This document shows, piece by piece, positions 10,906 to 53,397 of a DNA stretch of 64,000 bases. This DNA is from an uncultured Chloroflexia bacterium (lineage in GTDB: Bacteria > Chloroflexota > Limnocylindria > Limnocylindrales > CSP1-4). The stretch lies in assembly GCA_963760625.1 (NCBI GenBank), contig CAVXDU010000003.1, positions 22,127 to 86,126 on the forward strand. Reading direction: 5' to 3'. How positions within the stretch are numbered: position 1 is the first letter of the stretch; each line of letters opens with the position of its first letter. The notes below the pieces were generated by a model. The model was not told the origin of the DNA. It did not search any database and saw only the letters and a list, made by a program, of their open reading frames with translations. Both the position numbers and the translations under genes were made by a program.

Positions 10906-11022
10906 CTACCCGCCCAGCACCGCGTCACCACCCGCGCCGCCTCCCGCTGCCGCTGCTCCAGCACCTGCCCGTACGTGTTCGAGGTCAGCGTGATGGAGCT
11001 GTGCCCGAGCTGGTTCTTGACG
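10906..11022 (-). pseudogene. Tyrosine integrase C-terminal remnant
   Basis: VKNQLGHSSITLTSNTYGQVLEQRQREAAR..DAVLGG* with the LGH and catalytic Y motifs. Confidence 0.85.
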
Positions 11023-11094
11023 AGCGGCCGCTGCAGTGCCATGAGGTCGGCTCAGCCGCCCCGTAGCCTGCCTGGCTTGGCATACTCCGAGGTC

Positions 11095-12979
11095 ATGGAT
11101 GTCGCCGACGGTCCAGCCCGGACCGCGTCGAGCGCCACGCTGCGGATGGACTGGATCCTGGCGGTCCTCTCGGTGTGGCTCGTCGGAGCGTTCTACATCG
11201 ACCTGTGGGCTCATGCCCACGGGGAGGTCGACGACACGTTCCTGACCCCCTGGCACGCGATGCTGTACGCGGCCGCAGCGACATATGGGGTCGTGCTCGT
11301 CGCGGCCATCGTGCTGGGAGGTCAGCGCCGACGGATTCCGGGATGCGCTCCCCCCACCGTACTGGATGGGCTTCGTCGGCTTCATCCTGTTCTGGGTCGC
11401 CGGGATGCTGGACATGACCTGGCACTCGTTCTTCGGGTTCGAGGTCGACATCGAGGCGCTCCTCAGCCCGACCCACCTGCTGCTGGCCACGGCCGGCGTG
11501 CTGATGGTCGGCGCCCCCATCCGGGCACGCGGCGCCGCGCTGACATCGGGTGGTGTCCGGACGTGGCGGACGGCCGGACCGCTCGTGATCCCGACGGCCA
11601 TGGCGGTGGCGATCCTGGGGGCCTTCACCCAGTACGTCCATCCGTTCGTCGACGCGTGGGCGGCTGCCCTCCCCGGGGACGTGGTCACACCGACGGCGCA
11701 GCTGTACGCGATGGCCGCTGATGGCTCCGGCCAGCGTCGGCTCACTATCGTGCCCGGACATGCCCTGGGGCCGGCGTGGTCCCCGGACGGAGCGCGGATC
11801 GTATACGCATATCAGCCCGGGCCCGATGACGTCAGCGGGCTGCCTGCCGGCATCCGGTCCATGGCACCCGACGGCAGCAACGACCATCCGCTCGTGACCG
11901 GCTACGCCGGGTCGGGGCCGGCCTGGTCGCCAGATGGACAGCAGATCGCCTTCTCCGCGGAGGTCGACGGGCAACTGGACCTGTTCCTGATGCGGGCCGA
12001 CGGGACGGACGTCCGCCGGCTCACCGACGACCCGGCGTCCGACTGGGGCGTCGCCTGGGTGCCGGATGGGCGCACGCTGCTGTTCATCTCTGATCGAGGT
12101 GGTGGGTATCACATCCACCGGTTCGACCTCGCTACCGGCCAGGTCGCCCCCGTGACCAGCGGTCCGTGGCAGGACTACGACCCGGCCATCTCGCCCGATG
12201 GCACGCGGCTCGCCTTCACCTCCGACCGTCGCGGCGGCGGCCGCCATGACGTGTGGCTGGCTGACATCGACGGTGGCTCGCCATCCCGGCTGACGAACGG
12301 CGAGGACGTGGGCGACAGCTACATGCCGACCTGGTCGCCCGACGGCTCGACGATCGCGTTCACGTCCAACCGGACGGGCGACCTCGAGGTATTCACGATG
12401 CCCGTGACCAGTGGCGCGGCAGTCAACTTGAGCCGCAACCCGGGTGCCGATGATGGCTGGGCTCGCGCCGCCTGGTCGCCCGACGGGATGACGATCGTCT
12501 ACCCGTCGACCGGGAACGTGCCCTACTGGCGGGTACCGCCCGTCAGGCAGGGGTTCGGGGCCGCTGGGATCCTGGTCAGCGCGGCAGTGCTGGCGGGGGC
12601 GCTGGTCCATCTGCGGCGGCGCTACGGCACATTGCCCGTGGGGGCCTACGGGGTGGTCATCGGGGTGCCGCTCGCCCTCGTCACGGTCCTGCGCGACGAG
12701 TACCGGCTGCTGCCAGGGATCCTGGCGGCCGCGCTCATCGTGGAACTGATCGTGCGCCGGTGGCCCGCTGGCGCGAACAGGACAGGCGACGCCCTCGTGG
12801 CATTCCTCGTGCCGGCCGTCGTCTTCTCGCTGTACTTCGCGACGATCGCGGTCACCGACGGCATCGGCTGGACCATCCACCTCTGGATGGGCGCCATCGT
12901 GATCGCCGGCATCATCGGCTTGCTCCTTGATGAACTGGGCCGGCCCGCCACCGTCGGCGGGACCGCGCGCCCACCTTGA
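11095..12979 (+). CDS. Polytopic membrane protein with inserted TolB/PD40 beta-propeller (frameshift ~11325)
   Basis: TM segments (DLWAH, TPWH, SPTH) flank repeated PAWSPDG..IAF motifs; more TM helices at the C-terminus. Confidence 0.82.
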
Positions 12980-13020
12980 CCGACGCCGTCGGCTTCCAGG
13001 CCAGGGTGCCGCCGTGTGAC

Positions 13021-13074
13021 CACCCGCCCCGGCGGCGTGTCCATCACCCTCGCCACCTCGCGCTGCTGCTGCCG
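13021..13074 (-). pseudogene. Integrase extreme C-terminal scar
   Basis: QQQREVARVMDTPPG vs QRQREVARGMDAVLGG. Confidence 0.6.
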
Positions 13075-13281
13075 TCTGAGCGCGTGATCGACGACATCGC
13101 CGAGCGCCTGGCGCCGGCCGATCCACGTTGTGGACGGGTGAAGACGCTCAGTGTCTTCGCCCTGATGGTCGGGACGCTCGAGGTCTCCCGCGCCCTGGCC
13201 GACCGGCGACTCGCCGACGAGGTGCTCGAACAGGGCATCGAGAACGCTCTCGCTCTACTGGGCTCGCCGCGTCATGGCTGA
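13075..13281 (+). pseudogene. TetR family C-terminal remnant
   Basis: IDDIAERLAPADP...FALMVGTLEVSRALADRRLADEVLEQGIENALALL; no HTH or start. Confidence 0.6.
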
Positions 13282-14006: not shown

Positions 14007-14725
14007 CCGTCGCGACACTCCAAGCCCTGCTGGCGGCCGCCGTCGTCGGCCCGACCGTCCACGAGCTTCGGCCCGACTACGTCGCGCTCCTCATCGCAGC
14101 CGACGGCCTGCCGGGCGGCCCGAGCAACGAGCGGTCGGACGGCTGGCTGCACGAGGCGGAGGCCGCGGCCGCTGCGCGGCTGGCGGGGGGCGCGCCCGAG
14201 GAGCGGCCGCACGTGGCGCTGTGGCGGGACGCCTATCGGGCCTTCGGAGCGAAGCCGCAGCGGACGCGCAACAGCCTCGAGGCGCTGCTGCGCCGCGTGC
14301 CCGACGGGCTGCCCCGGATCGACCGGCTGACCGACCTCTACAACGCGGTCTCCGTCCTGCACGAGGTGCCGCTGGGCGGCGAAGACCTGGCAGGGTACGT
14401 CGGTCCAGCGCGCCTCGTCCGCGCGGTCGGGACGGAGTCCTTCGAGACCACCGCGGAGGGCCAGCCGGTCATCGAGCACCCCGAGCCGGGCGAGGTGGCA
14501 TGGGTCGACGACGCCGGTGTCACCTGCCGTCGCTGGAACTGGCGCCAGTGCACGCGCACGCGGCTTACTGCGGCGACCACTCGGGCGCTGTTCATAGTCG
14601 ACGCCCTCGGCCCTGAGGCCCTCGCGACCGCGACCGCCACCGGTGACGATCTGGAACGGCGGCTACGCGCCCTGGACCCTGGGGTCGGGACCGCCCGGCG
14701 ACTTCTCGCTATGCCCAGCGCCTGA
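14003..14725 (+). CDS. B3/B4 (PheT editing-like) domain protein
   Basis: WRDAYRAFGAKPQRTRNSLEALLRR, DLYNAVS, TCRRWNWRQ. Confidence 0.9.
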   Translation: MTVATLQALLAAAVVGPTVHELRPDYVALLIAADGLPGGPSNERSDGWLHEAEAAAAARLAGGAPEERPHVALWRDAYRAFGAKPQRTRNSLEALLRRVPDGLPRIDRLTDLYNAVSVLHEVPLGGEDLAGYVGPARLVRAVGTESFETTAEGQPVIEHPEPGEVAWVDDAGVTCRRWNWRQCTRTRLTAATTRALFIVDALGPEALATATATGDDLERRLRALDPGVGTARRLLAMPSA

Positions 14726-16032: not shown

Positions 16033-16200
16033 CTGCCCGCCACGGCGGTCACACTCGTCATCTTGGTCATCGTCGCCTCCAGCTTCCGCAGGGCGCCCGA
16101 CTACGGTCTTGCCCAGTCCCCCAGCCGATGGCCTCCCGCTCCGCGACGAGCCGCAGGCTGTGCTTGTCTCCCAGTCGCCATCCCGCGACGCCGCAGCGGC
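16033..16200 (+). repeat. att-arm-like motif abutting copy 2 of the ~146-bp repeat
   Basis: 16033-16055 matches 142-164 at 22/23 nt; 16055-16200 aligns to 7905-8051. Confidence 0.85.
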
Positions 16201-21474: not shown

Positions 21475-21506
21475 GGTAGGGGTGGGCATCGGGCCCACCC
21501 CTATCC
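21475..21506 (+). terminator. Intercistronic hairpin
   Basis: ggtaggggtgggc-atcgg-gcccacccctatcc. Confidence 0.55.
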
Positions 21507-21567
21507 TCGTTGTATCGGACCCAGGCACCGGCTACGCTGGCTCCCACGGGGAGGGTTCGCGTGACGG

Positions 21568-22512
21568 GTGGAGCGAGCGCCGGTCGGCCAGGGCAGCCCT
21601 ACCGGATGCCTCTCCCGTACCGCGATCGTCATCCGCAAGGGCGTACGCGATCACCTGCTCTGGTACCTGTTCCTGACGCCCGCGGTCGCGCTGATCGTGG
21701 GCTTCATGGTGGTCCCCATCCTGCAGTCGCTTTCCTTGGTGCTCTATCGCTGGAACGGGGTCAAGCCACGCCAATACGTCGGCCTCGACAACGTCGTCGC
21801 CCTCTTCGACGACCGCTTCTTCGTGGGAGCGCTGTCGCACACGTTCGCCTTCGCCATCGTGACGACCGCCGGGACCGTCGGCCTGGGGTTGCTGCTGGCC
21901 GTGGCCATCTCGCGCCAGGTGCCGGGCTCGTCGCTCTACCGCGTGCTCTTCTTCCTGCCCGTGATGGTGCCGATCACGGTGGTGGGGGCCCTGTGGGTGC
22001 GCCTCCTCGAGCCGAACTTCGGGCTCCTGAACACCGTCCTGCGCAGCGTCGGCCTGGATGGCGTGGCGAAGTCGTGGTTGGGCGACTCGAGCATCGCACT
22101 ATGGGTCCTGATCGGGGTCACGATCTGGCAGTACTCGGGCTTCCCGATGATCGTGCTGCTGGCGGCCATCGAGCAGATTCCCGACGAGGTGCATGAAGCT
22201 GTGACGCTCGACGGGGCGTCCGAGGCGCAGCGGCTTCGGCACATCACCCTGCCTCTCATCCGCCCCGTCCTCATCGGCATCTCCGTGTTGCAGGTCATCT
22301 TCTCGCTGAAGGTCTTCGACCTCGTCTGGGTCATGACGCGAGGCGGCCCAGGACAGAGCACCGACGTGCTGGGCACCTTCCTGTTCAACGAAGCGTTCTT
22401 CAGGGGCAAGTTCGGCTATGCGTCGGCGGTCGCCGTGGCCATGTTCGTGATCATCTTCGCGGTCACCTACGTCTACCAACGCATGGCCCGCGTCGAGGAT
22501 GTCGGGCTCTGA
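21568..22512 (+). CDS. Carbohydrate ABC permease (CUT1)
   Basis: EAA-loop-like HEAVTLDGAS; FDLVWVMTRGGPG. Confidence 0.92.
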   Translation: MERAPVGQGSPTGCLSRTAIVIRKGVRDHLLWYLFLTPAVALIVGFMVVPILQSLSLVLYRWNGVKPRQYVGLDNVVALFDDRFFVGALSHTFAFAIVTTAGTVGLGLLLAVAISRQVPGSSLYRVLFFLPVMVPITVVGALWVRLLEPNFGLLNTVLRSVGLDGVAKSWLGDSSIALWVLIGVTIWQYSGFPMIVLLAAIEQIPDEVHEAVTLDGASEAQRLRHITLPLIRPVLIGISVLQVIFSLKVFDLVWVMTRGGPGQSTDVLGTFLFNEAFFRGKFGYASAVAVAMFVIIFAVTYVYQRMARVEDVGL

Positions 22513-23404
22513 GCGGCGTGAGGTGGCCGCCATGACGCCCCCGGGCCGGATATGGGACATCTCGGTCGGGCGCGGCTTGCGCGTCCTCGTCATCGTCATG
22601 CTGGCAGTGTGGGCCGTCATCGAGCTCTATCCCGTCGTCTTCATGTTCAACGCCTCCTTGAAGGCGGACCCGGACATCCTGGGCAGCCCGTTCGCGCTGG
22701 CCATCCCACCCAGCGTTGAGAGCTACTTCAGGGTCTGGGCGGGCGACCAGACCGGGCAGCCCTACCTGGCCTACTTCCTCAACAGTTCGGTCATCCTTGT
22801 GGGCACCCTCGCCCTGCTGCTGTTCAGCGCGACACTGGCCGGCTACGCCCTGGCCAGAGGACGCTTCCCAGGCGGCCGGACGCTCCAATCGGCCATCCTC
22901 CTCTCGCTCGCCGTACCGGCGCACACGCTCCTCATCCCGCTCTACTTCTTCCTCGGTGGCTTCGGGCTGCGCAACAACCTCTTGGGCATGATCCTGGTGT
23001 ACACGACGCTAGGGCTGCCGCTCTCGGTCATCCTGGCCCGTGCCTACTTCCTGAGCTTCCCGGTCGAGCTCGAGGAGCAGGCTCAGATCGATGGCTGCTC
23101 GCGCGTGGGCGCCTTCGGGCGCATCGTGCTACCCATGTCGAAGGGCATCCTGGCCACCATTGCCATCGTCAACGTCACTTGGGTCTGGTCGGAGCTGTTC
23201 TTCGCCAACGCCCTGCTGTCCGACACGGACATGCAGACGCTGCCCATCGCCATCGCCTCGTACCGCCCTGCACTGATGGCGTCAAGCGCGCCCATCAGCC
23301 AGCATTTCGCGATCATGGCGCTCACCACCTTGCCTCTTCTCGTGTTCTATGTTCTCTTCCAGAAGAACATCCGCAAGGGCATCGCATCGGGCGCCTTGAA
23401 GTAG
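22499..23404 (+). CDS. Carbohydrate ABC permease (CUT1)
   Basis: ELEEQAQIDGCS; VLFQKNI. Confidence 0.92.
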   Translation: MSGSERREVAAMTPPGRIWDISVGRGLRVLVIVMLAVWAVIELYPVVFMFNASLKADPDILGSPFALAIPPSVESYFRVWAGDQTGQPYLAYFLNSSVILVGTLALLLFSATLAGYALARGRFPGGRTLQSAILLSLAVPAHTLLIPLYFFLGGFGLRNNLLGMILVYTTLGLPLSVILARAYFLSFPVELEEQAQIDGCSRVGAFGRIVLPMSKGILATIAIVNVTWVWSELFFANALLSDTDMQTLPIAIASYRPALMASSAPISQHFAIMALTTLPLLVFYVLFQKNIRKGIASGALK

Positions 23405-23433
23405 CAGCGCACCGCTGAGTCGCCGGGCCCAGG

Positions 23434-23467
23434 CCCGAACAGTTGCTCGACGTCCTCGAGCGTCATG
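23434..23467 (-). pseudogene. Integrase scar
   Basis: MTLEDVEQLFG vs MTLEDVKIMLGH of the 25042 remnant. Confidence 0.55.
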
Positions 23468-23503
23468 ACCCCGCATGGTGTCATCCGACTGGTCCTCGTC
23501 GTG

Positions 23504-24412
23504 CTACGCGCGCACGCCCGACAGCTTGGCTGGATCGGCCACGATGTCGATGGCGCGGATCCGCCCGCCCACGATCGCGATGGCGACTACCCCGATGACC
23601 CTCCCGGGCGGACCGACCACGATCCCGGCCCCGCCGTTCACCATGGCCGGGCGGCAGAGCGGCGCGAAGAATCGCGCATTCGACCGCAGGTACGCCGCCA
23701 CATGCTCTGCCCCTGACATCGGTGGTGGCGCCGCCTGCGGACGTCCGCCGGTGTCGATCCGCAGGACGACGTCCGGATCCAGGAGGATCAACAGGCGCCC
23801 GAGGTCGCCGTCACGGGAAGCGGCAAGGAACGCGTCCACGATGGGCCGCTGGACGGCGAGGTCGGCGTCGGGCTCCACCCCTGCGGCCCGCACCCGGCGA
23901 CGGGCACGGCTGGCCAGCTGTCTGCTGGCGGCCGGTGACCGGTCGACCATGGGGCCGATGACATCGAACGGGACACCGAAGACGTCATGGAGCACGAAGG
24001 CCAGGCGTTCTGCCGGGCTCAGGGTCTCGAACACGATGAGCAGGGCGATGCCGATCGTGTCGGCAAGGACCGTGGCCTCCTCGGGTGAGTCGTAGGCCAC
24101 GACGATGGGTTCGGGGAGGGAGAGTCTCGAACTGCCATCGTTGCGTGAACGACGGGCCCGTAGCCTGTCGAGGCAGATGCGCCCGGTGACGGTCGTGAGC
24201 CACGGTCGCAGTGCGGAGCGGTCCTCCGGCGGTCGTCGGTCCAGCCGCAGCCAGCACTCCTGGAGCGCATCCTCGGCCTCCGCCATCGACCCGAGCATCC
24301 GATAGGCCACACCCCGTAGATAGGGTCGATGCCGCTCGAACTCGTGGGCCAGTAGCGAACGAGCTACCTGGTCGTCGCCGGGATCGGCCGAAGGGTCATG
24401 GTCCATGTGCAT
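23504..24412 (-). CDS. ECF sigma factor with SnoaL-like extension (ECF41/SigJ type)
   Basis: AYRMLGSMAEAEDALQE, LPEP, FVLHDVFG, DTGG, DPAKL. Confidence 0.92.
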   Translation of the reverse strand: MHMDHDPSADPGDDQVARSLLAHEFERHRPYLRGVAYRMLGSMAEAEDALQECWLRLDRRPPEDRSALRPWLTTVTGRICLDRLRARRSRNDGSSRLSLPEPIVVAYDSPEEATVLADTIGIALLIVFETLSPAERLAFVLHDVFGVPFDVIGPMVDRSPAASRQLASRARRRVRAAGVEPDADLAVQRPIVDAFLAASRDGDLGRLLILLDPDVVLRIDTGGRPQAAPPPMSGAEHVAAYLRSNARFFAPLCRPAMVNGGAGIVVGPPGRVIGVVAIAIVGGRIRAIDIVADPAKLSGVRA

Positions 24413-24434
24413 CCCTATCACGAAGCGAACCGGC

Positions 24435-24463
24435 CACGATGTGACAGCGGTCGTCACATCGTG
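24435..24463. promoter_or_regulatory. Back-to-back ECF41-type promoters (inverted repeat CACGATGTGAC-N7-GTCACATCGTG)
   Basis: GTCACA -35 on both strands, each followed about 17 nt later by CGTG. Confidence 0.7.
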
Positions 24464-24532
24464 CCCGCTGACTACGTGTACCACACGGACGGCGCCGACA
24501 TCCCGGCACCGCCACCATCACGGAGTCGATCG

Positions 24533-25019
24533 ATGACCGAGATCCCCGACCACGCGCCCTTCCCGTGCTCCCCGCGTCGTGACCGCCTTCAATCCGCTCA
24601 TGCGCCGCCTCATGAGCGCTGGGATGCCCGCCGGACCGAACGTCCTCCTGACGGTCACCGGCCGTCGGACCGGCCTCGCACGCACGTTCCCGGTCGCGCT
24701 GATGCAGGTCGACGACCGGATGTTCGTCCAGTCGCCCTACGGCGAGGTGGACTGGGTCCGGAACCTACGCGTCGCGGGCCGTGCCACGCTGATCCGGCAT
24801 CACCGCGAGACGCCGGTGGATGCCGTCGAACTCACGCCCCAGGCGGGCGGTCCGGTCCTGCGGCAGGCACTGGCGCCGTACCGCAGGAACCGGCTCGTCG
24901 CCCGCTTCGCGCAGGTCTTCGTACCGCTGGGCCCTGACGCCTCGCTCGACGACCACGTCCGTCACGTCCAGGGCCATCCGATGTTCGAACTGCTTCCCCG
25001 TCAGGATCGGGACCGGTGA
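24533..25019 (+). CDS. F420H2-dependent nitroreductase/quinone reductase (Ddn-like); frameshift ~24570
   Basis: LLTVTGRRTG..R, DWVRNLR..G, HPMFEL. Confidence 0.82.
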
Positions 25020-25041
25020 GGCATCGGGATCGCGGGCGATC

Positions 25042-25185
25042 CTACCAGCCGAGCACCGCGTCCATTGCCCCTGCCACTTGTCGTTGGCGCTCGTCGAGTA
25101 CGTGCCCGTAGGTGTTGGAGGTCAGCACGATCGTGCTGTGGCCGAGCATGATCTTGACATCCTCGAGCGTCATCCCGCTGGAGAG
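25042..25185 (-). pseudogene. Tyrosine integrase C-terminal remnant
   Basis: SGMTLEDVKIMLGHSTIVLTSNTYGHVLDERQRQVAGAMDAVLGW*. Confidence 0.88.
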
Positions 25186-25342
25186 TTCCCGATCCGGGAC
25201 AGGGCTGCTCGCCGCGTTCGAGGCGCACGCATATCCCAACGACGTCGGTCCCGGGGTGTTCGACGAGCACTCTCGCGGGACCCTGGCGTCGACGCCATGG
25301 TCTCGCATCTCGTGGCTGCGCAGCGCCATCTGTCCGCCGACC

Positions 25343-25390
25343 GGACTCTTGATCCTCGTGTCCTGGGTTCGAATCCCAGCCGGCTCACCA
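25343..25390 (+). tRNA. 3' half of tRNA-Lys(CTT), att-like fragment, not a full gene
   Basis: gga-ctCTTga-tcc, T-arm ctggg-TTCGAAT-cccag, ends CGGCTCACCA; no D-arm or 5' acceptor strand. Confidence 0.78.
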
Positions 25391-25638
25391 GCTTCAAGCG
25401 TGCATATGACGATTGAGACCTGGTTATCGTCATCGACTGCGCGTATCGGCCGGGCGGTTCTCGACCTTTGGCCTGCGATGACGGTCCGGATGGCAGTGCG
25501 ATCCACCCACGCGCGAGCTCGATAATCCGAATGGGAGGACTGTCCCGAGCGCAGGGCCGACGGCTGGGCGACGGTCGACCGATCGCTCGCCGCCGACGGC
25601 AACATCGTTGCAGCAAGATGCCGAGAACGGAGTTCACG

Positions 25639-26388: not shown

Positions 26389-26419
26389 ACCGGGTCGTTG
26401 ACCTCTCGGGAGGTGACCT

Positions 26420-26536
26420 CACCCTCCCAGCACCGCGTCCACGCCACGTGCCACTTCGCGTTTGCGCTGTTCCAGCACGTGCCCGTGAGTGTTGGACGTC
26501 AGCACGATGGTGCTGTGACCCAGCAGGTTCTTCACA
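26420..26536 (-). pseudogene. Tyrosine integrase C-terminal remnant
   Basis: VKNLLGHSTIVLTSNTHGHVLEQRKREVARGVDAVLG. Confidence 0.88.
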
Positions 26537-26597
26537 TAGGTCTGGCCGGGATCTTGCGTGGGGGGTCGGCCCGGCCCGATCCTGCGGTCGAGTCGGA

Positions 26598-27146: not shown

Positions 27147-27167
27147 CGGTCGTCCATCCTCCGCTTG

Positions 27168-27215
27168 ACTATGACGCTCGTCATAGTGGATGCTTGTCTA
27201 TGACGACCAGCATAG
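27168..27215. promoter_or_regulatory. Two probable TetR operators
   Basis: ACTATGACG-CT-CGTCATAGT (27168-27187) and CTATGACGACCAGCATAG (27198-27215). Confidence 0.72.
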
Positions 27216-37430: not shown

Positions 37431-37473
37431 TCATCCGCACAGGCACCCGTTCCATCGCGCGCGCGACCTGCTC
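37431..37473 (-). pseudogene. Integrase extreme C-terminal scar
   Basis: EQVARAMERV..G* vs RQVAGAMDAVLGW*. Confidence 0.5.
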
Positions 37474-37669
37474 GGCCGACGATGGAGCGCACACGAAGGT
37501 GGATAAGTGGGTTGCCATGCGCGCAAGAATGATAGAGGACAGGGGTGAGGCTCGGCCCGGTCGCGCGAATACCAGGGAGTCTGGGGCCCGGTCCGGACGC
37601 ATCGTCCGGACCGATCCGGCTGTACCAGAGAGGCTGTCCCCAAGCGAGCGGGTTCGTGGGAGGTGGGAG

Positions 37670-38318: not shown

Positions 38319-39653
38319 TTAGGGAACGACCATCCGAATGCGATGGTTGGCGCTGTCGCCGATGAGCAGCGCACCGTCGCGGTCCACGACGGAGGTGGGG
38401 CCGTTCAGTTGGGCCTCGGTCGCCGGACCGCAGTCCCCGCTGTAGTGCCCAGTTCCGTTGAGTTGTCCCACTCCGCTGCCGGCCACCGTCGTGATGATCC
38501 CGGTAGCGTCGACCTTGCGGACATCCCCGTTGTTCCAGTCGGCGACATAGAGGTCGCCCGCCGTGTCGACGGCAAGGCCGTAGGGGCTGGACTCGATGGT
38601 GGCATCGACCGCCGGGCCAGCGTCGCCGGAATGACCCGGGATGCCGGTCCCGACGACGGTCGAGATGGTCCCGGACGGGTCCACCTTGCGGATCCGGTAG
38701 TTGCCGCCGTCGCCGAGGTACACGCTACCGTCCGGTGCGACCGCGACGCCGACTTGCCCGTACGGCCAGTTCCCGAACGTCGCCTCCGTGGCGGAACCCC
38801 CGTCGCCAGAGAAGCCCGTCGCTCCGGTGCCGGCGAACGCGTGGATCACCCCCGCGGGATCGATGGTGCGGTACCTGTTGGTGTCGTCGAAATACAGCGA
38901 GCCGTCGGGCCCGATGGCCAGCGTGGCCGCACCGATCTGGGCATCGATCGCCGGTCCGCCGTCACCGGTCGATCCCTGGACACCGGTCCCCGCGATGGTC
39001 GTAATGGTCCCGGCGGGGTCGATCCTCTTGATGGTCGAGACGTCCGTCAGATAGAGGTTGCCCGCCGGATCGAAGGCGAGGCCGCTCGGGCCGGCGAGCC
39101 CGGATGCGAACGTCTCGATGACACCGTCGGGCCGGACGCGCCGCACGGTCGTGCCGTCACCGAAGTAGACGCTGCCGGAACCGTCGATGGCCAGACCCTG
39201 GCCCATCTGGATCATCGCGGCCGTGGCTGGGCCGCCGTCACCGGACGAGCCGGCGACGCCGGTCCCGGCGATCGTGGCGATGTCGCCGCTCTCGAGGGTG
39301 GTGCCGGGTGGGCAGGCCGTCGGCAGCATCGCGAGCGCCGGCAGGGCATCCCTCCCATGAGGTGGGCCGTCCCGGAGTACCTGCGAGCCGACGATGGCGG
39401 CGCTCGCCGCGAGTGCGACCGCCAGCAGGCCGATCAGGAGCAGTACCAGCGCCATCCGTAACGGCGGCGCCGCCGTGAAGGTCGTGGTTCGAACAGTCAT
39501 CGGTAGCCACCTTTCGAGGAAGGTCCACGCAGGCCGCTGCCGCGTGCGGCTGGTCTGCGCGAGGATGTCGTCGCGGAGGTCCGGCGTGCTGGTCCCGGCG
39601 AGATCGTTCAGGCCAGCACTCAATCGGGTCCCCAGTCGGTCGTCGAATGTCAT
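38319..39653 (-). CDS. ECF-coupled membrane protein (putative anti-sigma) with NHL-repeat propeller
   Basis: TRQRPAWTFLERWLPM then a TM helix; repeats AGTG..G.SGDGGPA; ATGA overlap. Confidence 0.88.
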   Translation of the reverse strand: MTFDDRLGTRLSAGLNDLAGTSTPDLRDDILAQTSRTRQRPAWTFLERWLPMTVRTTTFTAAPPLRMALVLLLIGLLAVALAASAAIVGSQVLRDGPPHGRDALPALAMLPTACPPGTTLESGDIATIAGTGVAGSSGDGGPATAAMIQMGQGLAIDGSGSVYFGDGTTVRRVRPDGVIETFASGLAGPSGLAFDPAGNLYLTDVSTIKRIDPAGTITTIAGTGVQGSTGDGGPAIDAQIGAATLAIGPDGSLYFDDTNRYRTIDPAGVIHAFAGTGATGFSGDGGSATEATFGNWPYGQVGVAVAPDGSVYLGDGGNYRIRKVDPSGTISTVVGTGIPGHSGDAGPAVDATIESSPYGLAVDTAGDLYVADWNNGDVRKVDATGIITTVAGSGVGQLNGTGHYSGDCGPATEAQLNGPTSVVDRDGALLIGDSANHRIRMVVP

Positions 39654-40213
39654 GCCGGACGTCCCATGGGTGCGCCAGCGGGGCCGTCGACGTCGTCGCC
39701 GACGGCCGTGAAGCGCATGGCCGTGAGTGATCGATAGAGGCGGGACGACGCCGTACCGAGCGGGATGCCGAGGGCGTCCGCCGCCTCGGGCAGCGTCATC
39801 TCCAGATAGAAACGCAGCACGATGATCGTGCGCTGCTCCGGGTCAAGCCGGGCGAGGGCGCGGTCGAGATAGTCACGGTCAGCGACACGGGCCGACGCAT
39901 CGGCGACGGGCACGTCATCGAGGGGGTTCAGCTCCACCTCGATGACCCGCCGGCGCCGCCGCCGCGACATGTCGATGCAGGAACGTACGGTGAGACGATG
40001 CAGCCAGGCATCAAACCGGTCCGGGTCGCGCAACCCGGGCAGGTTCCGCCAGGCGAGCACCAACGCCTCCTGGACCGCGTCTCGCGCGAGCTCCGAGTCC
40101 CGGAGGATGAGACGGGCAGCCAGTTCCAGCCGCGCGACGGACGCATCGACGAGCACACCGAAGGCGTCATGATCGCCTCGGCCTGCCCGCTCGACGAGAC
40201 CCCGCTGGTCCAC
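39650..40213 (-). CDS. ECF RNA polymerase sigma factor
   Basis: ARDAVQEALVLAWRNLPGLRDPDRFDAWL; GIPLGTASSRL. Confidence 0.93.
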   Translation of the reverse strand: MDQRGLVERAGRGDHDAFGVLVDASVARLELAARLILRDSELARDAVQEALVLAWRNLPGLRDPDRFDAWLHRLTVRSCIDMSRRRRRRVIEVELNPLDDVPVADASARVADRDYLDRALARLDPEQRTIIVLRFYLEMTLPEAADALGIPLGTASSRLYRSLTAMRFTAVGDDVDGPAGAPMGRPA

Positions 40214-41415: not shown

Positions 41416-42204
41416 TCACGCAGGGCTCCTGCCGGCCGGACTCTCGAGAGCCGGTGGCTCCGGCAGCGGCGGGAGGTCACCGGAGACGATGAGACCGACG
41501 ACATCCTGGGCGTTGCCTCCGGCGTCCTTGTGGACGAGGATGGCCGAGAGCCCTGCATAACCGCCCTCCCCGACGCAGACGTAGGTCGCCCCGGTCGTCA
41601 GGAGTGTCCCGCCATTGCCGAGGCCTTTGTAAAGGTTGGTGTTCGAGCACGCCCAGCCGCCGCCGTCGTTCTGCAGATATTCGGCCTCCATCTCGACCGT
41701 GATGGTGCCTGCATCCGTCCGGTAGGCGTCGGCGTTCCACCGCGCCACCGCCTCACCCGTGAGGCGTGGGTCACTGGACGTCCATGTCCGCGGCTTGCAC
41801 TCGTCGTTCCAGTGGTGGGTGACATCGCCGTCGACGACGGGGGGCGGGTTGGAGCAGTCCGGGGCGGGCTCGATCTGGCCGGTGACCCATGTCGGGGCGA
41901 CGGGCGGGACCGGGACCGGGCTCGGCAGCAGCGAGGCGCCGGCGATCACGGCACCGGCGAGGGCGAGCGTCAGGACGGCCGTGACGGCCACGACCAGGGC
42001 GATGCGGAGCGTCGGCGAGCCGACGACGAGCTGGGATCGGTAGCGCATGGGGGGCTCCTTGAGGCTGGTGAGCCAGGGCGGACGCTGCCGCCTGCGGCTC
42101 GTGGCGGAGGCGATGTCGGCGCGCAACTGGTCGGGGGCCCGCGACGTGGGTGTCTCGGCCAGCAGGCGTTCGAGGAGCGGCTCGACGCGCACGTCTCGAG
42201 TCAT
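41416..42204 (-). CDS. ECF-coupled membrane protein (putative anti-sigma), unknown extracellular domain
   Basis: RRRQRPPWLTSLKEPPM..GSPTLR then a TM helix; SDPRLTGE; ATGA overlap. Confidence 0.82.
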   Translation of the reverse strand: MTRDVRVEPLLERLLAETPTSRAPDQLRADIASATSRRRQRPPWLTSLKEPPMRYRSQLVVGSPTLRIALVVAVTAVLTLALAGAVIAGASLLPSPVPVPPVAPTWVTGQIEPAPDCSNPPPVVDGDVTHHWNDECKPRTWTSSDPRLTGEAVARWNADAYRTDAGTITVEMEAEYLQNDGGGWACSNTNLYKGLGNGGTLLTTGATYVCVGEGGYAGLSAILVHKDAGGNAQDVVGLIVSGDLPPLPEPPALESPAGRSPA

Positions 42205-42764
42205 GGCGTGTGCACCGGAATGGCATGTTTCGGGGCCTCAGGCTCGGCCTCGAGGGCGAGCCTGAGGGCCCGCAGCCCACGGCTCAGGCGGGACTTCGCC
42301 GTGCCCACCGCGATCCCCAGGATCTCGGCCACGTCGCTGATGGGGAAGCCGAGATAGAAGTGGGTGACGATGGCTGCGCGCTGCTCGACCGGCAGCCGCC
42401 CGAGCTCGTGCTCGAGACGGTCGCGCTCGACGAATGGCAGCGCGATGTCATCGACATGGTCGATGCCGGCGTCCGGCATCGCCTGGAGCTCGACCAACGT
42501 CCGGCGTCGGTCCCGTTTCGCGTGGCGGTAGCAGGACCAGACCGTCAGGCGGTAGAGCCAGGCATCCCAGGCGTCCGGTTCGCGGAGGGCGGGCAGGTCC
42601 CGCCAGGCCGCGACCAGCGCTTCCTGGACGGCATCCTGGGCCTGGTCAGCGTCGTGCAGGATGAGGTTGGCGACGGTGTACAGCCGGTCGACCGAGCCGT
42701 CGACCAGGCGCGTGAAGGCGTCATGATCGCCCCGCTTCGCCCGGTCCACCAGCTCTCGCTGCAT
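42201..42764 (-). CDS. ECF RNA polymerase sigma factor
   Basis: AQDAVQEALVAAWRDLPALREPDAWDAWL; GTAKSRLSRG. Confidence 0.93.
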   Translation of the reverse strand: MQRELVDRAKRGDHDAFTRLVDGSVDRLYTVANLILHDADQAQDAVQEALVAAWRDLPALREPDAWDAWLYRLTVWSCYRHAKRDRRRTLVELQAMPDAGIDHVDDIALPFVERDRLEHELGRLPVEQRAAIVTHFYLGFPISDVAEILGIAVGTAKSRLSRGLRALRLALEAEPEAPKHAIPVHTP

Positions 42765-47710: not shown

Positions 47711-50700
47711 TCACGCATCGGCGAGAAGCAGGTCGCGAGCTTCGAGGATGTCGGGTGTGCCCTGGTCCTCGGTCAGCGTCTCGAGGATGTCGCGGAGCCG
47801 GCGCGACCTGTCAACGCGTACGGCTGGGTCCGTATCTCGGGCGCTGCGATAGAGCCGGATAGCGGCACGCAGCTCGGACGTCCGCGCACCCCAGGCGTGG
47901 GCGACCTCCAGGGCACGCTCGTACGCGGCTTCCGCGGCCGCGGCCCCGGTAGCGAGCAGGAGGTCACCCCGGACGATGTACAAGTCTGGCATCACGGGTG
48001 CCAAGGCAAGTGCCTCGTCGACGGCACCGAGACCTTCGGCGATCCGATCGCCCTGTACACATGCCTGGGCCTTGAGTTGCAGCAGGAACGGCCAGAAGAC
48101 CGGCGGCGTCCGCAGGTCTCGGTACTGCGCGAGACCCTCGGAGATCCACCGGAACCCCTCGTCCCCCACGTTCAGAGCTACCGCCGACGCGCCGAGGAGC
48201 GCTGTGCCGACGGCCTTCCAGACGTGGAGCTCATGCTCCTCGGCGACCTCGATGACCTGGACCGATAACGCCCGAGCCTCTGCGGGTTCCCCCCGCCACA
48301 GTCGCAGTAGGCCAGCATGGAACAGCGCATAGCCGGACGTAGACGGATGGGCCAGCGCGCGCGCCGCTGCCGCCGCCTGCTGGGAACGTTCCAGGGACCG
48401 GTCGGTCCGTCCCAGCCACCAGAGGAGGAGCGACAAAGCGGTCAGGCTCACGACCCATGGGTTGGGCCCCAGACGGAACGGCACCTCGCGACCGGCATTC
48501 GCCTCGAACATCCGGACGCTGGTCTCCACGTCGGGGATGCTGTCCTCGAGCCTGCCTCCGAAGCCGCGGCTGGTGCCCAGCACAAGATGGCCGTCGGCGC
48601 TCATCAGCGGATCGTCCTGGAGTTCCCCCAGCCGAACGATCCGTCGTCCGAGGTCCGCGGCCTTGGCATGTTCATTCCGGAGCATGTAGAAGCTGGCCAG
48701 ACCGCGCAGCACCGGGTAGGCCTGGGGCACCTCGGCCCCCTTGAGCGAGCCCAGCAGCCCCTCGTACGCCGTCTGCACCTCGGTGGTGTACCCCTGCATG
48801 GCGGTGAGTGCGCGTGCCTGATTGCTGCGAAGGGTGATCGCGAGGAGGGTGCGCTCGGGAGTCGTCGGCAGGACCTCCAGCAGGGCCAGGACGTCGCTGG
48901 CGAGGTCCGTCAACCCCCGGTACCAGCCATTGGCGTCATGGAGTGGCCACAGGCCCCGCATGAACACCTCGAGTCGCTCCAGGTCGTGTCCCTCGGTGCT
49001 GAGCCGCCAGGCTGCCCGCAGGTTCTCCAACTCACGGGCCAGTTCCCGCAACGCTGTCGAACGCTCGGGTCCTGCCGTCTTCAACCCGCGCTGCGAGGCC
49101 CACTGTGCGTAGTAGGCGGCATGGGCCGAACGTGCTCGCGACGCTAGCTCGGCATCGGTATCCAGTCGCTCGGTCGCATATTCCTGCACGGACTCGAGCA
49201 TCTCGAACCGCGGCTCCTCTCCTTCCCGATCGCTTTGCCGCAGGAGGCTCTTGTCGACGAGTGAGATCAGGCCATCGATGGGGTCGATGCCGGGAACACG
49301 ATCGGCAATGCTGCGTGCCACGCTCTCGACGGCTTCCACGTCGGCGCCGTGGAAGCAGGCCAGCACCTCGAACAGTCGCTGCTCCTGGGGTGTCAGCAGC
49401 TGGTAGCTCCACTCGATCGTGGCGCGAAGGGTCTGCTGGCGTTCCGGGAGCTCGCGGGTCCCGCTGCCCAGGATGCTCAGTCGGCTGCCGAGTCGGTCGA
49501 GCAGGGCCTCGAGCGAGAAGACCCGCAGCCGTGCCGTCGCGAGCTCGATCGCCAGCGGCAGCCCCTCCAGTCGGCGGCAGATCTCTGCGACGGTGGCGGC
49601 GTTGTCATCGGTGACCCGGAAGTCCGGCCTGACAGCCCGCGCGCGTTCGACGAACAGTCGCACCGCCTCGAAGCCCTCGACCCGCTCAGCGGTGGCGACC
49701 TTCAGCGTCGCCTCCGGCAGGCCCATCGGCGGCACGGCAAAGAGGCGCTCGCCACTGACGTGCAGAGCCTCCCGGCTCGTCACCAGCAGCTTCAGCTCGG
49801 GGCAGTCCTTAAGGAGTCGGGCGAGGATGGGGGACGCACTCGTGACCTGCTCGAAGTTGTCCATCACGGTGAGCAGCTGCTGATGTCCGATCTGTTCGGT
49901 CAGCTCGGCGAGCTGCGCATCCTCGCTGGCATCCGGGAACCCCAGCTCGCGGTTGATCGTCGTGAGCAACGTGGTCGAGTCGCGCGCCGCGGACAGATCG
50001 ATGAACACCGCGCCTGCTGAGAAGTGGTCCTGCGCATCCCTGGCCGCGTGCAGCGCCAGTCTCGTCTTGCCGATCCCCCCAGGTCCCGTGAGCGTCAGCA
50101 GCCGGACCGCCTTGTCCTCGAGGTACCTTCCGATGCGCAGCTGCTCCGCGGTGCGGCCGACGAAGACCGATGGCTCCTCAGGAAGGGTCCGGACACGCTC
50201 GCCCATCGTGGTGAGCGGCGGAAACCTCACCGGCAACTCCGGATGCAGGAGCTGGAAGACGCGCTCCGGTCGCGACAAGTCCCTCAGGCGGTGCTCCCCC
50301 AGGTCGCGCAGGGACGCGCCCTCGGGAAGCCGATCCATGACCAGGGCCGCCGTGGGGTTGGAGAGCAGCGCCTGGCCACCGTGGCCCGCCGCCATGATGC
50401 GAGCGGCGCGGTTCACGGCCTGCCCGTGGTAATCGCTCCCGTCACCGGATGCCTCGCCGACGTGGAGGCCCATGCGGACCCGGAGCGGCCCGGTCTCGCC
50501 CCATGACTCGCCTTGGAGCGCGATCTGGGCGGTGAGACACGCGGTCACTGCATTGCGCGCGGTATCGAACACCGCCATGACGCCGTCACCGGTCATCTTG
50601 ACGACCGCCCCATCTGCGCCCTGCACCGCGTGGCGAAGGATCGCGTCATGTCGAGCGAGGGACGCCCGCATCCCATCCGGGTATCGCTCCCACAGCCGCG

Positions 50701-50839
50701 TGCTGCCCTCCACATCGGTGAACAGGAACGCGAGCATCCTGGAGTTGGTAGGTTCGTCCTGGTCGACGGTCACGATTCCGATCGGGCTGGGGTCATGGCC
50801 GAGGGACTCGGCGACGGGTCGTCCGACCGTCCCCGCCAT
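47711..50839 (-). CDS. Class III adenylate/guanylate cyclase - STAND NTPase - TPR protein
   Basis: FTDVEGST, GDG, NRAAR; GPGGIGKT; DNFE; GLPLAIELA. Confidence 0.93.
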   Translation of the reverse strand: MAGTVGRPVAESLGHDPSPIGIVTVDQDEPTNSRMLAFLFTDVEGSTRLWERYPDGMRASLARHDAILRHAVQGADGAVVKMTGDGVMAVFDTARNAVTACLTAQIALQGESWGETGPLRVRMGLHVGEASGDGSDYHGQAVNRAARIMAAGHGGQALLSNPTAALVMDRLPEGASLRDLGEHRLRDLSRPERVFQLLHPELPVRFPPLTTMGERVRTLPEEPSVFVGRTAEQLRIGRYLEDKAVRLLTLTGPGGIGKTRLALHAARDAQDHFSAGAVFIDLSAARDSTTLLTTINRELGFPDASEDAQLAELTEQIGHQQLLTVMDNFEQVTSASPILARLLKDCPELKLLVTSREALHVSGERLFAVPPMGLPEATLKVATAERVEGFEAVRLFVERARAVRPDFRVTDDNAATVAEICRRLEGLPLAIELATARLRVFSLEALLDRLGSRLSILGSGTRELPERQQTLRATIEWSYQLLTPQEQRLFEVLACFHGADVEAVESVARSIADRVPGIDPIDGLISLVDKSLLRQSDREGEEPRFEMLESVQEYATERLDTDAELASRARSAHAAYYAQWASQRGLKTAGPERSTALRELARELENLRAAWRLSTEGHDLERLEVFMRGLWPLHDANGWYRGLTDLASDVLALLEVLPTTPERTLLAITLRSNQARALTAMQGYTTEVQTAYEGLLGSLKGAEVPQAYPVLRGLASFYMLRNEHAKAADLGRRIVRLGELQDDPLMSADGHLVLGTSRGFGGRLEDSIPDVETSVRMFEANAGREVPFRLGPNPWVVSLTALSLLLWWLGRTDRSLERSQQAAAAARALAHPSTSGYALFHAGLLRLWRGEPAEARALSVQVIEVAEEHELHVWKAVGTALLGASAVALNVGDEGFRWISEGLAQYRDLRTPPVFWPFLLQLKAQACVQGDRIAEGLGAVDEALALAPVMPDLYIVRGDLLLATGAAAAEAAYERALEVAHAWGARTSELRAAIRLYRSARDTDPAVRVDRSRRLRDILETLTEDQGTPDILEARDLLLADA

Positions 50840-50995: not shown

Positions 50996-51479
50996 ATGGA
51001 CACCACGATGGTCGTGATCGACTGGAACCAGAGCGTCGAGGCCCTGTACCGTCAGGACTCCGATCGTCTGTGGCGGGCGGTGCGTGCCTTCGCGGGCGAC
51101 CCGGACATCGCCAGCGAGGCGGTCGCCGAAGCCTACGCCCAGGCTCTTCGCCGTGGACCGGCGATGCGCGATCCGGCGGCCTGGATCTGGCGTAGCGCGT
51201 TCCACATCGCAGCCGGCGCCCTGAAGTCACGTCGCTCCGGCTGACGAGGCCTCGTCGGGTCCCGGCGAGCACCACGACCGTTACGAGGACCCGGACCTCC
51301 TGGCAGCGCTTCGGCAGCTGCCCGACGCGCAGCGCGCGGCGGTGATCCTCTTCTACTACGCCGACCTTCCGGTCGGTGAGATCGCGGCCCGCCTCGGCTC
51401 GAACGGGCTCGCGGTGCGGGCGAACCTCAGCCGTGGGCGCAGACGACTGCACGACCTCCTGGGTGGTGGACATGACTGA
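50996..51479 (+). CDS. ECF RNA polymerase sigma factor (frameshift ~51245)
   Basis: ASEAVAEAYAQ, DPAAWIW; LPDAQRAAVILFYYADLPVGEIA. Confidence 0.85.
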
Positions 51480-53004
51480 CCTCCACGAGCGCTTCCGTGC
51501 GCTCGACCACGTCCCTGCGCCGTATCTCTGGAACGAGATCGAGCGGCGTGCCGGGCAGCCCGCGACCGCCATGTCCGTCGTGGTGTCGTCGCCCATCCAA
51601 CGGCGGCCGCGGCTCGCTCCCCACTCGAGGTCGCACGCCGTGCAGATGACGCTCAAGGTCGCAACGGTCGCCGTCATCGTGCTTGCCGTCGGCCTCGGGC
51701 TCGGCCGGTTGCTGCCGAGTGCCGTCACTGACGTCGGCGTCGATCCATCCCCAACGTCCAGCCCGGTGGCGCCGGCGATCCCCCTCCGGGAGGGATGGCT
51801 GCCTGCAGGCACCTATGTCTCGACACCCTTCGCGCAGCCCGGCGGGCTGGGGCTGTGCCTCACGCCGCCCCAGCCCGGGTGCGTCGAGTCGACCGAGGAC
51901 GACGGCATCCGGTTCACGCTGACCCTCCCCGACGGCTGGGCAGGCGCTCCCCATGGAGGCGTGGAGGAGCGCGATATCGGGCCGAACATCTCCTTCGAGC
52001 GGGGCGGATGGCTCCATGTCGATCCCTGCGGCGGTTCGGGCTCGCCGCTCGGCGCTCCGGAGATCCCGGTCGGACCGACCGTCGACGACTTCGTTGCGGC
52101 GCTCGTGGACCACCCGCTGCTGGTCGTGTCAACGCCGGTGGACGTCACTTTGGGCGGCTACTCCGGGACCTACGTGGACCTGACAGTCTCCCCGGACGTC
52201 GATCAGCACCGCCCCCTGGACCTCCCGTGCAATGGGTTCAAACCGTGGTCACCGGGCATCTACAAGGAGGCAGGGCTGTGGATCCTGGACGTCGACGGGC
52301 ACCGGGTGATCGTCAGGAGCGAAGAGGACCCGGAGGATTCGCCGGAGGCCCGGGCGCAGCTCCAGGCAGTCATCGATTCGATCACGATCGACGTCCAGCC
52401 GGCGGACCCACTGGCGACACCCGGTGCCCGTCTCCCGTGCCAGGGAGGCGAGACGACGCTGACGGCCGGACGGTACGTCATCCCAGGCCCGGGCACCTTC
52501 TGCTCCAACCAGTCGCGCGGCTGGCCGGACAAGACGGTCACCATCGAGCTTCCCGCTGGCTGGGTGTATCGGGCTCCTGTATACGGCAGTTGGCTCTACC
52601 GCGATTCGGCCAAGCTCCAGATCGGGGTCGTCGACCACGTCTATGCCGATCCATGCCACGCGGGATCGGCCGTGGGACCGACACAGGACGACCTGATCGC
52701 CGCGCTGCGTGGTGTCCAGACCACCACGCCCGACGCGATCACGCTGGATGGGTACTCCGGTGTGCGGATGGACCTCGCGATCCCGACCGATCCCCCCGAC
52801 TGCGAGCCCCAGCGACTGTGGGACGCCGAGACCGACAACGGCAGGTTCGGACCCCGGGCTGAGCCTGGATGGATCCATCGGATGTGGATCCTCGACGTCG
52901 AGGGGGTGCGCTTCGTCCTGGACGCCTCTCGTGCCCCGGACGCCCCGCCCGAGGTGCAGGCGGAGCTGGACGCGATCGTCGAGTCCGTCGACTTCGAGCC
53001 GTAA
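51472..53004 (+). CDS. ECF-coupled membrane protein with two copies of an unassigned extracellular domain
   Basis: MTDLHERF..., TM helix; repeats TL.GYSG..DL, WILDV.G.R, L.A...SI. Confidence 0.82.
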   Translation: MTDLHERFRALDHVPAPYLWNEIERRAGQPATAMSVVVSSPIQRRPRLAPHSRSHAVQMTLKVATVAVIVLAVGLGLGRLLPSAVTDVGVDPSPTSSPVAPAIPLREGWLPAGTYVSTPFAQPGGLGLCLTPPQPGCVESTEDDGIRFTLTLPDGWAGAPHGGVEERDIGPNISFERGGWLHVDPCGGSGSPLGAPEIPVGPTVDDFVAALVDHPLLVVSTPVDVTLGGYSGTYVDLTVSPDVDQHRPLDLPCNGFKPWSPGIYKEAGLWILDVDGHRVIVRSEEDPEDSPEARAQLQAVIDSITIDVQPADPLATPGARLPCQGGETTLTAGRYVIPGPGTFCSNQSRGWPDKTVTIELPAGWVYRAPVYGSWLYRDSAKLQIGVVDHVYADPCHAGSAVGPTQDDLIAALRGVQTTTPDAITLDGYSGVRMDLAIPTDPPDCEPQRLWDAETDNGRFGPRAEPGWIHRMWILDVEGVRFVLDASRAPDAPPEVQAELDAIVESVDFEP

Positions 53005-53130
53005 CGGGTCGCAGATGGCGGCTCGCCGAGCCCGGTGACGCCATGCGGTGGATACGATAGTCCACCAGATGGGCTCGACCCGGGAGATTGGATGGCACGA
53101 CCGGGTCGTCAATCCCGCGAGTCCGCGAGG

Positions 53131-53315
53131 TTCGATTGGACGTGGTGCGAGGCCCGGCGTTCGACGTGATCGTCGTCGGTGCTGGAGCCGCGGGATCTGT
53201 CGTCGCGCGGCAGCTGGTTGAGACGGGCGACCGATCGGTCCTGCTGCTCGAGGCCGGACCCGATCATCGCGCAGCCATCCCTGCCGAATGGCGCGACGGG
53301 TGGCGACTGCCCCAG
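53131..53315 (+). pseudogene. GMC oxidoreductase 5' remnant
   Basis: FDVIVVGAGAAGSVVARQL...VLLLEAGPD, then similarity is lost. Confidence 0.72.
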
Positions 53316-53341
53316 GGCCGTAATCGTCCTCGCGACAGGAA

Positions 53342-53397
53342 ACCCGCCCGGCACGGCCTCCATCACCCGCGCGACTTCGCGCGCGCTACTGTTCGAG
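53342..53397 (-). pseudogene. Integrase C-terminal scar overlapping the stop of the TolB-like gene
   Basis: LEQ*R..REVARVMEAVPGG. Confidence 0.6.

Follow-up and report, generated by a model that had tools for sequence, protein, structure and literature searches.

We analysed a stretch of 64,000 nucleotides from an uncultured Chloroflexia bacterium (hereafter the window; assembly G000, contig C3, positions 22127-86126; 69% G+C) which carries a series of truncated tyrosine integrase genes, and we conclude that it is probably part of a large variable tRNA-Lys(TTT) island that arose by tandem accretion of small integrative elements and was subsequently reduced by deletion. The source assembly comprises 3.75 Mb in 16 contigs and is 60% complete. 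An original prediction, made from the bare sequence, had proposed repeated site-specific integration followed by deletion, and this part of it is borne out by integrase 3' stubs that are diverged and once coding, by their clustering downstream of one tRNA-Lys in one orientation, by debris of attachment (att) sites, by a lack of synteny in 30 relatives and by the same pattern, with intact integrases, in genomes of the same genus.

Integrase remnants in the window

Remnants were searched for with a DNA profile of the last 135 nt of the integrase gene, built from eight copies of the assembly itself (among them 10907-11036, 25043-25174 and 26420-26545) and run against the whole 3.75-Mb assembly, with tblastn and a family hidden Markov model (HMM), and by targeted local alignment of each candidate to five strong copies, for which 400 random 156-nt segments of six other contigs served as the null; gene coordinates are those of codon-usage gene calls. 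Every remnant in the window lies on the minus strand, as predicted, and on minus-strand translation the integrase tail is evident at 10906, 25042 and 26420, with shorter pieces at the other sites. These three long remnants had been called clear, and all of them, which are training copies, reach profile E-values below 1e-32: 10907-11036 (residues ~338-376 of the 376-aa family, with a 1-nt deletion near the end; E 9.7e-33), 25043-25185 (residues 330-375; E 4.2e-34 over 25043-25174) and 26420-26545 (residues 339-376; E 8.9e-33). All three were recovered by tblastn and the HMM as well. The stub at 10907 recurs together with its flanks on contig C6 at 96% identity. Short 3' stubs were found at 13029-13086 (about the last 20 codons; profile E 0.0045, alignment score 62, null 1/400) and 53342-53398 (about the last 19 codons; profile E 0.016, score 57, null 0/400). 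The piece at 23433-23474 (score 47, null 0/400) matches the integrase, as had been stated, but it derives from residues ~328-341 (MTLEDV...) and not from the extreme end, and it was recovered neither by the assembly-wide DNA profile (E ≤ 10) nor by the family HMM. An internal piece anticipated near 2510 was located at 2477-2596 (minus strand; residues 279-318, without the 3' end; tblastn E 2.4e-7, HMM E 1.8e-8); it is 85% identical to C4:600552-600638.

Thus six of the eight proposed 3' scars (10907, 13029, 23433, 25043, 26420 and 53342) and the internal fragment are statistically solid, whereas the other two are weak. At 27692-27716 a possible minimal stub consists of a perfect 17-mer of the LTSNT region only (profile E 1.4, null 3/400), and at 37432-37501 a possible decayed 3' stub gives a gapped match to the last ~70 nt (score 35, null 1/400), which was recovered neither by the profile (E ≤ 10) nor by the family HMM.

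Six of the eight remnants begin 22-41 bp past the stops of plus-strand genes, in line with the 20-45 bp originally noted, and five of these six genes have Pfam matches. The stub at 13029 starts about 41 bp past the stop of a PD40-propeller gene (11366-12979), the fragment at 23433 29 bp past that of an ABC permease gene (22499-23404), the stub at 25043 22 bp past a gene for an F420H2-quinone-reductase-like protein (24579-25019) and the one at 26420 31 bp past a DUF4386 gene (25618-26388), while the two weak candidates follow a gene at 27239-27664 by 27 bp, with a terminator-like hairpin at 27665-27684, and a PhnB-like gene at 36920-37399 by 31 bp. Outside this short-spacing pattern fall the stub at 53342, 337 bp past a plus-strand gene, and that at 10907, which lies downstream of a co-directional minus-strand gene. 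We considered whether stubs are kept as the 3' untranslated region or terminator of the convergent gene and set it aside: the segment 10000-29000 holds six terminator-like sites against 3.9 ± 1.8 in shuffled sequence, and only the hairpin at 27665-27684 is located at a stub. The truncated 5' ends of the copies are spread from residue 171 to residue 361, which excludes a site-specific breakpoint inside the integrase. On the other side, the similarity between copies ends at the stop codon or at most ~20 nt beyond it, with no common sequence further on.

Parent integrase and independent origin of the stubs

The stub peptide matched 285 database proteins at E ≤ 0.001 (300 candidates), many of them 376-aa tyrosine integrases with PF14659 and PF00589 domains whose identity over the stub is 84-91%; the matches also include many short proteins that end in this tail. 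Family members at least 73% identical come from public records of metagenome-assembled genomes titled Candidatus Limnocylindrales or Chloroflexota, and members 34-53% identical from Dormibacterota, Thermomicrobiales, Rubrobacter and Streptomyces records. The stub translations contain ...LGHSSITLTSNTYGHV..., in agreement with the C-terminal LGHS...Y motif that includes the catalytic tyrosine, and PF00589 is matched in the genome itself at C3:12914-13099 and C4:622489-622614. Judged by its domains, the parent of the stubs is a tyrosine recombinase of phage type (PF00589 with an N-terminal SAM-like domain). The search for an intact parent, suggested along with the original prediction, led to this 376-aa family, which is intact beside tRNA-Lys(TTT) in genomes of the same genus.

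In the assembly, the family is best represented by two catalytic-domain pseudogenes with frameshifts, at C3:12509-13123 and C4:622062-622617. A tblastn search with the family member P0094 found 14 family loci, 12 of which extend to residue 370 or beyond and none of which covers residues 1-66; the two that do not reach the 3' end are the internal fragments C3:24603 and C4:600543. This 3' bias is not a detection artefact, since the family HMM did pick up an N-terminal piece of 25 aa (residues 67-91; E 1.7e-8). Mapped genome-wide, the remnants are not random in position or orientation: 14 of the 16 profile matches at E ≤ 0.01 fall on C3, C4 (600-632 kb) or C6, all 14 of them on the minus strand, with at least 12 stubs in ~83 kb of contig C3.

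The seven long stubs of the assembly differ pairwise by 0.141, 0.109 and 0.309 at codon positions 1, 2 and 3, and seven intact integrases of relatives by 0.140, 0.119 and 0.390. Because divergence is concentrated at third codon positions, the stubs must derive from separate, once-functional integrases rather than from one copied scar. Synonymous and non-synonymous codon differences number 185:171 in the stubs as against 251:136 in the intact genes, and this lower ratio fits decay after truncation. Moreover, serine codons are exchanged between AGC and TCG among copies, and at least three tail variants occur (...ELRKREVARG..., ...EQRQREVARVM... and ...DERQRQVAGAM...). The scars record separate acquisitions of diverged elements, with at least three integrase lineages represented in the window. 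Third-position variation is low in the last five codons of the stubs; a DNA-level constraint on these codons was nevertheless dismissed, the matches having been ascertained on that very segment and five of the seven intact genes varying there.

On contig C13 (87682-88476, locus L007) a lone plus-strand stub follows a paralogue of the window gene at 10084-10848; it adjoins a fragment of a different PF00589 integrase, with tRNA-Gly(CCC) 3.6 kb away, which points to a second island of smaller size. The 254-aa gene at 10084-10848 was itself considered as a conserved integrase-upstream gene and discarded, as it has no similarity to the genes upstream of the integrases at the relatives' loci L030 and L033.

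Attachment-site debris and the tRNA-Lys island

The original prediction had placed att debris at the junctions, and such debris is present, although at sites that it missed; the integrase scars are not themselves junction sites. A tRNA-Lys 3' fragment of ~48 nt at 25343-25392 (plus strand), running from the anticodon stem to CCA, is 96-98% identical to the 3' part of the tRNA-Lys genes of relatives and to C4:615573, and constitutes an att core repeat; the stub at 25043 has its truncated 5' end 158 nt away. A second such core is found at 54599-54643 (plus strand; 91-92% identical to tRNA-Lys 3' parts). Putative arm-type repeats of the form CAGCCACG-N4-CAGCCACGG lie on the plus strand at 134-154, where the core is absent and the flank to ~246 aligns with the P-arm side of the att junction at C4:615454, and, each with three mismatches, at 30302-30322 and at 59198-59218, the flank of the latter matching the arm region of the relatives' locus L032. 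Three arm repeats in the window compare with 0.01 expected, and none of 100 shuffles had three. ARAGORN found no complete tRNA in the window, where the tRNA pieces are fragments only, and the sole Rfam match to it at E ≤ 1 was a sub-threshold toga_FSE, taken as chance.

On contig C4 the arm repeat, putatively bound by the integrase, stands on both sides of the core (615454 and 615700). Genome-wide, all ten arm repeats with at most three mismatches are on C3, C4 or C6 and on the plus strand. Core repeats occur at C4:615573, at C3:47468 and C3:76725 (25343 and 54599 of the window) and on C6 at 5.7, 7.9 and 10.3 kb. The att junctions of C6 at 5546, 7867 and 10226 have no stub between them, and integrase-less, att-flanked modules in tandem are present both there and at the relatives' locus L053, resembling the cis-mobilizable elements (CIMEs) discussed below. 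In five of 35 truncated copies, among them the one at 25043, the truncated end lies at a distance of 12-171 nt from an att arm or core.

A full tRNA-Lys(TTT) gene is located at C4:597440-597515 (plus strand), and all stubs of C4 lie downstream of it. Between the terminal 6 kb of C4 and the initial 8.1 kb of C3 (1-8128) identity is 92-99%, and because of this overlap C3 probably continues the same island, so that the window would lie in one large island downstream of tRNA-Lys. With direct repeats of the tRNA 3' end beside a full tRNA, flanking arm-type repeats and variable presence, the region appears to bear the hallmarks of a tRNA-targeting element.

Counterparts in relatives

All 49 genus genomes searched have matches to the integrase. 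Among the 150 of 221 matches that were listed, and from which the 3' bias was tallied by hand, full-length, stop-free integrases of at least 73% identity occur in at least six places, with one more cut by a contig end, and the partial copies of high identity overwhelmingly end at residue 367 or beyond, with one 5' piece (residues 1-53). The intact integrases of the genus read towards tRNA-Lys, with 1.4-3.6 kb of cargo separating the integrase stop from the P' arm, a layout seen in L030, L046, L047, L048, L052, L053 and L082. Only 150 nt separate the two in L054, and in more distant family members (L058, L062 and L083) the integrase stop is 110-150 nt from the tRNA. The relatives' arm stands ~70 nt 3' of the full tRNA-Lys(TTT) and ~110 nt 5' of the distal core repeat (attR); in L029 an element of 6.4 kb is enclosed between tRNA-Lys and a 40-nt core repeat. 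Beside the intact integrases lie, among others, genes for an HTH_17 excisionase-like protein, a STAND NTPase and a RelA/SpoT-domain protein. Stub arrays are found in relatives on contigs of 0.3-2.9 Mb. In L033/L045 the order is tRNA, arm, 3.1 kb, stub, 2.5 kb and intact integrase, and in L034 tRNA, 2.3 kb, stub, 2.1 kb and stub. In L032, two stubs (11599-11723 and 14130-14270) have the same arm junction and the same internal deletion, yet are 82% identical.

Cargo and variation between genomes

Synteny across the scars was compared in 30 relatives, none of which has a collinear match to 21500-29000 (matches extend over at most 1.48 kb, at 71% identity). Similarly, the matches of C3 95-105 kb to five relatives are scattered and non-syntenic. 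Within the assembly, C6 represents a variant haplotype which has 1.9 kb and 1.1 kb in common with C3 at 96-97% identity; between these blocks it has 3.8 kb where C3 has 9.8 kb, and one breakpoint falls on an att core while a stub lies 24 nt from the other. Contigs C3, C4, C6 and C14 have segments of 1-5 kb in common at 92-99% identity (C3 108939-113980, for example, shares sequence with C14), so that the bin contains a mixture of island variants from different strains.

The cargo of the window encodes TetR and LacI regulators, sugar and branched-chain ABC transporters, a fucosidase, a MoxR ATPase, extracytoplasmic function (ECF) sigma factors with propeller partners, a cyclase-NB-ARC protein, F420- and PhnB-type enzymes, a deaminase-methyltransferase and a GroEL paralogue; genes for conjugation or replication and phage genes are absent from its annotation. 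Cargo orientation is mixed, and just upstream of the window the cargo is co-directional with the stubs. Three consecutive cargo modules of 0.4-1.1 kb each occupy 24.5-27.7 kb.

Several genes of the variable region are of note in their own right. The ECF sigma-factor genes at 39650-40213, 42201-42764 and 23504-24412 have many paralogues of ~65-70% identity across the assembly, some of which are paired with NHL or PD40 propeller genes. A Cpn60/GroEL paralogue lies at 60118-61743 (minus strand), with DNA paralogues 72-79% identical on C2 and C12. The 1042-aa protein encoded at 47711-50839 (minus strand) contains an adenylate/guanylate cyclase domain together with an NB-ARC/STAND NTPase, and in L030 a STAND NTPase is convergent cargo beside the intact integrase. 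Seven copies of a ~147-nt repeat (61-73% identical) at 351-1305 belong to a 439-aa open reading frame (ORF; minus-strand 909-2228) whose N-terminus matches Sigma70_r2 and which may be an ECF sigma factor fused or misjoined to a propeller-like repeat partner. A 147-nt segment at 7905-8051 recurs at 16055-16200 (83-95% identity) within a 724-aa ORF made up of an EamA transporter and an SDR protein, preceded at 16025 by a degenerate arm-like motif; the pair may mark a further element junction or a gene fusion.

Proposed mechanism and alternative explanations

The elements would carry the 376-aa tyrosine integrase, with the 3' ~48 nt of tRNA-Lys and flanking arm repeats as attachment site; the integrase would read towards the tRNA, with the cargo between its stop codon and the tRNA-side arm. 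Tandem integration would give, in the direction of the integrase, core-P-body1-int1-cargo1-P'-core-P-body2-int2-cargo2-P'-tRNA, and a deletion from the P' of the internal junction through body2 into int2 would leave int1-cargo1-stub2-cargo2-P'-tRNA, the order seen in L033. Such a deletion would strip the tRNA-proximal element of the 5' part of its integrase, of the rest of its body and usually of the internal att junction, so fusing its cargo to the next element. The integrase 3' stub would survive because it abuts the retained, usually convergent, cargo gene, and the sequence 5' of it up to the next cargo would be a redundant mobility module. A deletion ending short of the junction would leave the stub beside an arm or core, as in the five truncated copies mentioned above. 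Repetition of the process would yield an alternation of cargo and stubs with occasional surviving att cores and arms, and the loss of all integrases a fixed array like the window. The order of events and the mode of deletion, illegitimate and with selection keeping cargo while the ability to excise is lost, are what we infer from these arrangements.

Several observations weigh against this reconstruction. No intact family integrase was found in the window, in agreement with the original prediction, or in the assembly; as the latter is 60% complete, activity is not demonstrable here. Of the eight stubs, those at 27692 and 37432 reach no more than nominal significance, and with two cores and three arms for eight stubs in the window most junctions are inferred. 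The join of C4 to C3 is an overlap of 6-8 kb at 92-99% identity and not a spanning read. In four relatives the flanks of tRNA-Lys do not resemble the upstream flank of the C4 tRNA-Lys at the DNA level, the match being confined to the tRNA and arm region, so that the loci are only putatively orthologous. The survival of 3' ends only is explained by an argument from geometry. Finally, a comparison of whether modules are gained or lost as units had been suggested along with the original prediction; some homologues of cargo modules in relatives have neither stubs nor att sites within 1.5 kb, and unit-wise module mobility is not supported.

The integron-like reading of the original prediction, an array without attC sites in which the scars serve as junctions, did not hold: tRNA-Lys cores and arm repeats are present, the 5' ends of the stubs vary, similarity ends near the stop and cargo orientation is mixed. 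In a stronger form, the integrase 3' end would itself be a recombination site or a self-copying repeat and the scars functional cassette junctions. The regular spacing of 22-41 bp past plus-strand genes, the uniform orientation and a synonymous variation that is slightly low over the last five codons would agree with such a role, yet third-codon-position divergence is like that of intact genes, serines switch between AGC and TCG, 5' ends range over residues 171-361, nothing beyond ~20 nt past the stop is common to the copies, five of seven intact genes vary synonymously in the last five codons, and genuine tRNA-derived att cores and arms exist. This reading is therefore largely refuted and we regard it as very improbable; the scars are by-products of deletion and not recombination sites. 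Still harder to credit is that the short matches arose by coincidence in GC-rich sequence and the array through co-assembly of several strains into one bin. Strain mixture is real, as the segments common to C3, C4, C6 and C14 show, and the two nominal stubs would suit this explanation, but six fragments have strong statistical support, every fragment is contained in a single contig and the same arrays recur in relatives on contigs of up to 2.9 Mb.

Somewhat less remote, though still unlikely, is that the tRNA-Lys locus acts as an active gene-capture platform. Elements would insert serially, the proximal mobility module would be deleted and the cargo would join the next element, which has the integrase and outer att sites, so that a mobile element grows an internal array of modules of 1-3 genes separated by stubs; modules bounded by tRNA-Lys att junctions (arm-core-arm) would be integrase-less, cis-mobilizable cassettes moved in trans by a related integrase, a function like that of an integron served by attP-type sites. 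Modules of 2.3-3.3 kb with complete arm-core-arm junctions on C6 (5546, 7867 and 10226) and in L053 speak for it, as do the att arms or cores kept 12-171 nt from the truncated end in 5/35 copies, the three consecutive small modules of the window and the two stubs of L032 with the same arm-stub junction despite 18% divergence. That junction, however, has only its two copies in L032 and occurs in no other of the 49 genus genomes searched, most window stubs have no att site, the assembly has no intact integrase and homologous cargo in relatives sits outside such arrays. Public sequencing runs yielded no readable excision junctions either: each of 11 runs contains at most 0.13 of the sampled words, and four gave short, low-depth contigs only, in which joints such as 25395 to 26966 (two runs) are of uncertain support and involve the conserved tRNA core.

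Comparison with known systems and significance

Accretion followed by deletion, the reading that we favour, has close parallels. In Streptococcus thermophilus, according to work reportedly published by Pavlovic et al. in 2004, elements related to ICESt1 and CIMEs integrate in tandem at one site, and deletion derivatives without integrase keep their att sites and form composite islands. The window resembles them in tandem site-specific integration, in integrase-less derivatives and in composite islands, consistent with the same route of accretion and deletion. The target there is the 3' end of fda, whereas here it is tRNA-Lys in a Chloroflexota lineage, and in comparison the elements here are small and without recognisable conjugation genes, they mainly leave an integrase 3' stub as scar and have lost most of their att junctions. 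In classical tRNA-linked islands and integrative elements of the lambda type, the integrase lies next to attP and the tRNA 3' end is duplicated. The elements described here are similar in having a tyrosine integrase that reads towards att, a core formed by the 3' part of the tRNA and arm-type repeats on both sides, but differ in the 1.4-3.6 kb of cargo between integrase stop and P' arm in the close family and in the unusually dense array of stubs.

With integrons they have in common the serial accumulation of small accessory-gene modules in an array of consistent orientation, driven by a tyrosine recombinase. In contrast to integrons, attC-like sites, an IntI-type integrase and attI are lacking, cargo orientation is mixed and the modules are autonomous elements that have decayed by reduction. 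As regards attC-like sites, no conserved sequence or inverted repeat common to the copies was found past the stop codon, in comparisons that did not include a dedicated attC model. On the basis of its phage-type PF14659 and PF00589 integrase, which seems to target a tRNA, and its mixed cargo orientation, the array does not appear to be an integron.

Also in a Chloroflexota lineage, the Dehalococcoides ssrA islands are likewise tandem islands beside one small-RNA gene: according to the part of the source considered, multiple islands lie within ~100 kb downstream of the gene, bounded by direct repeats of its 3' end, and 15 islands without integration modules were proposed to be cis-mobilizable and formed by accretion (PMC3146451). 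Their target is the transfer-messenger RNA, the repeat has 20 bp and the integration module is a different one (PMC3146451). In the text considered, the words "truncated", "remnant" and "pseudogene" do not occur, and serial integrase 3' stubs are not mentioned (PMC3146451). A literature search on truncated integrase remnants in tandem at tRNA-Lys gave no match. Accretion with deletion is a known route; the close succession of 3' stubs and the presence of cargo between integrase stop and P' arm are lineage-specific details.

As it stands, the island is a clear but unsurprising example of accretion and deletion: in an uncultured soil and freshwater Chloroflexota lineage, a flexible region of more than 100 kb was built by stacking, and then stripping, small elements that target tRNA-Lys. 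The stripped elements leave behind regulators, transporters, sigma/anti-sigma pairs, STAND NTPases and genes of detoxification type, and the integrase stubs form a countable record of independent acquisitions. If the tRNA-Lys locus did act as a platform for gene capture, it would be a functional analogue of the integron made from a phage-type integrase and tRNA-derived sites. Moreover, if composite elements with internal, stub-separated cargo, such as that in L033, are still mobile, they would provide a simple and testable route by which the cargo of integrative elements grows.

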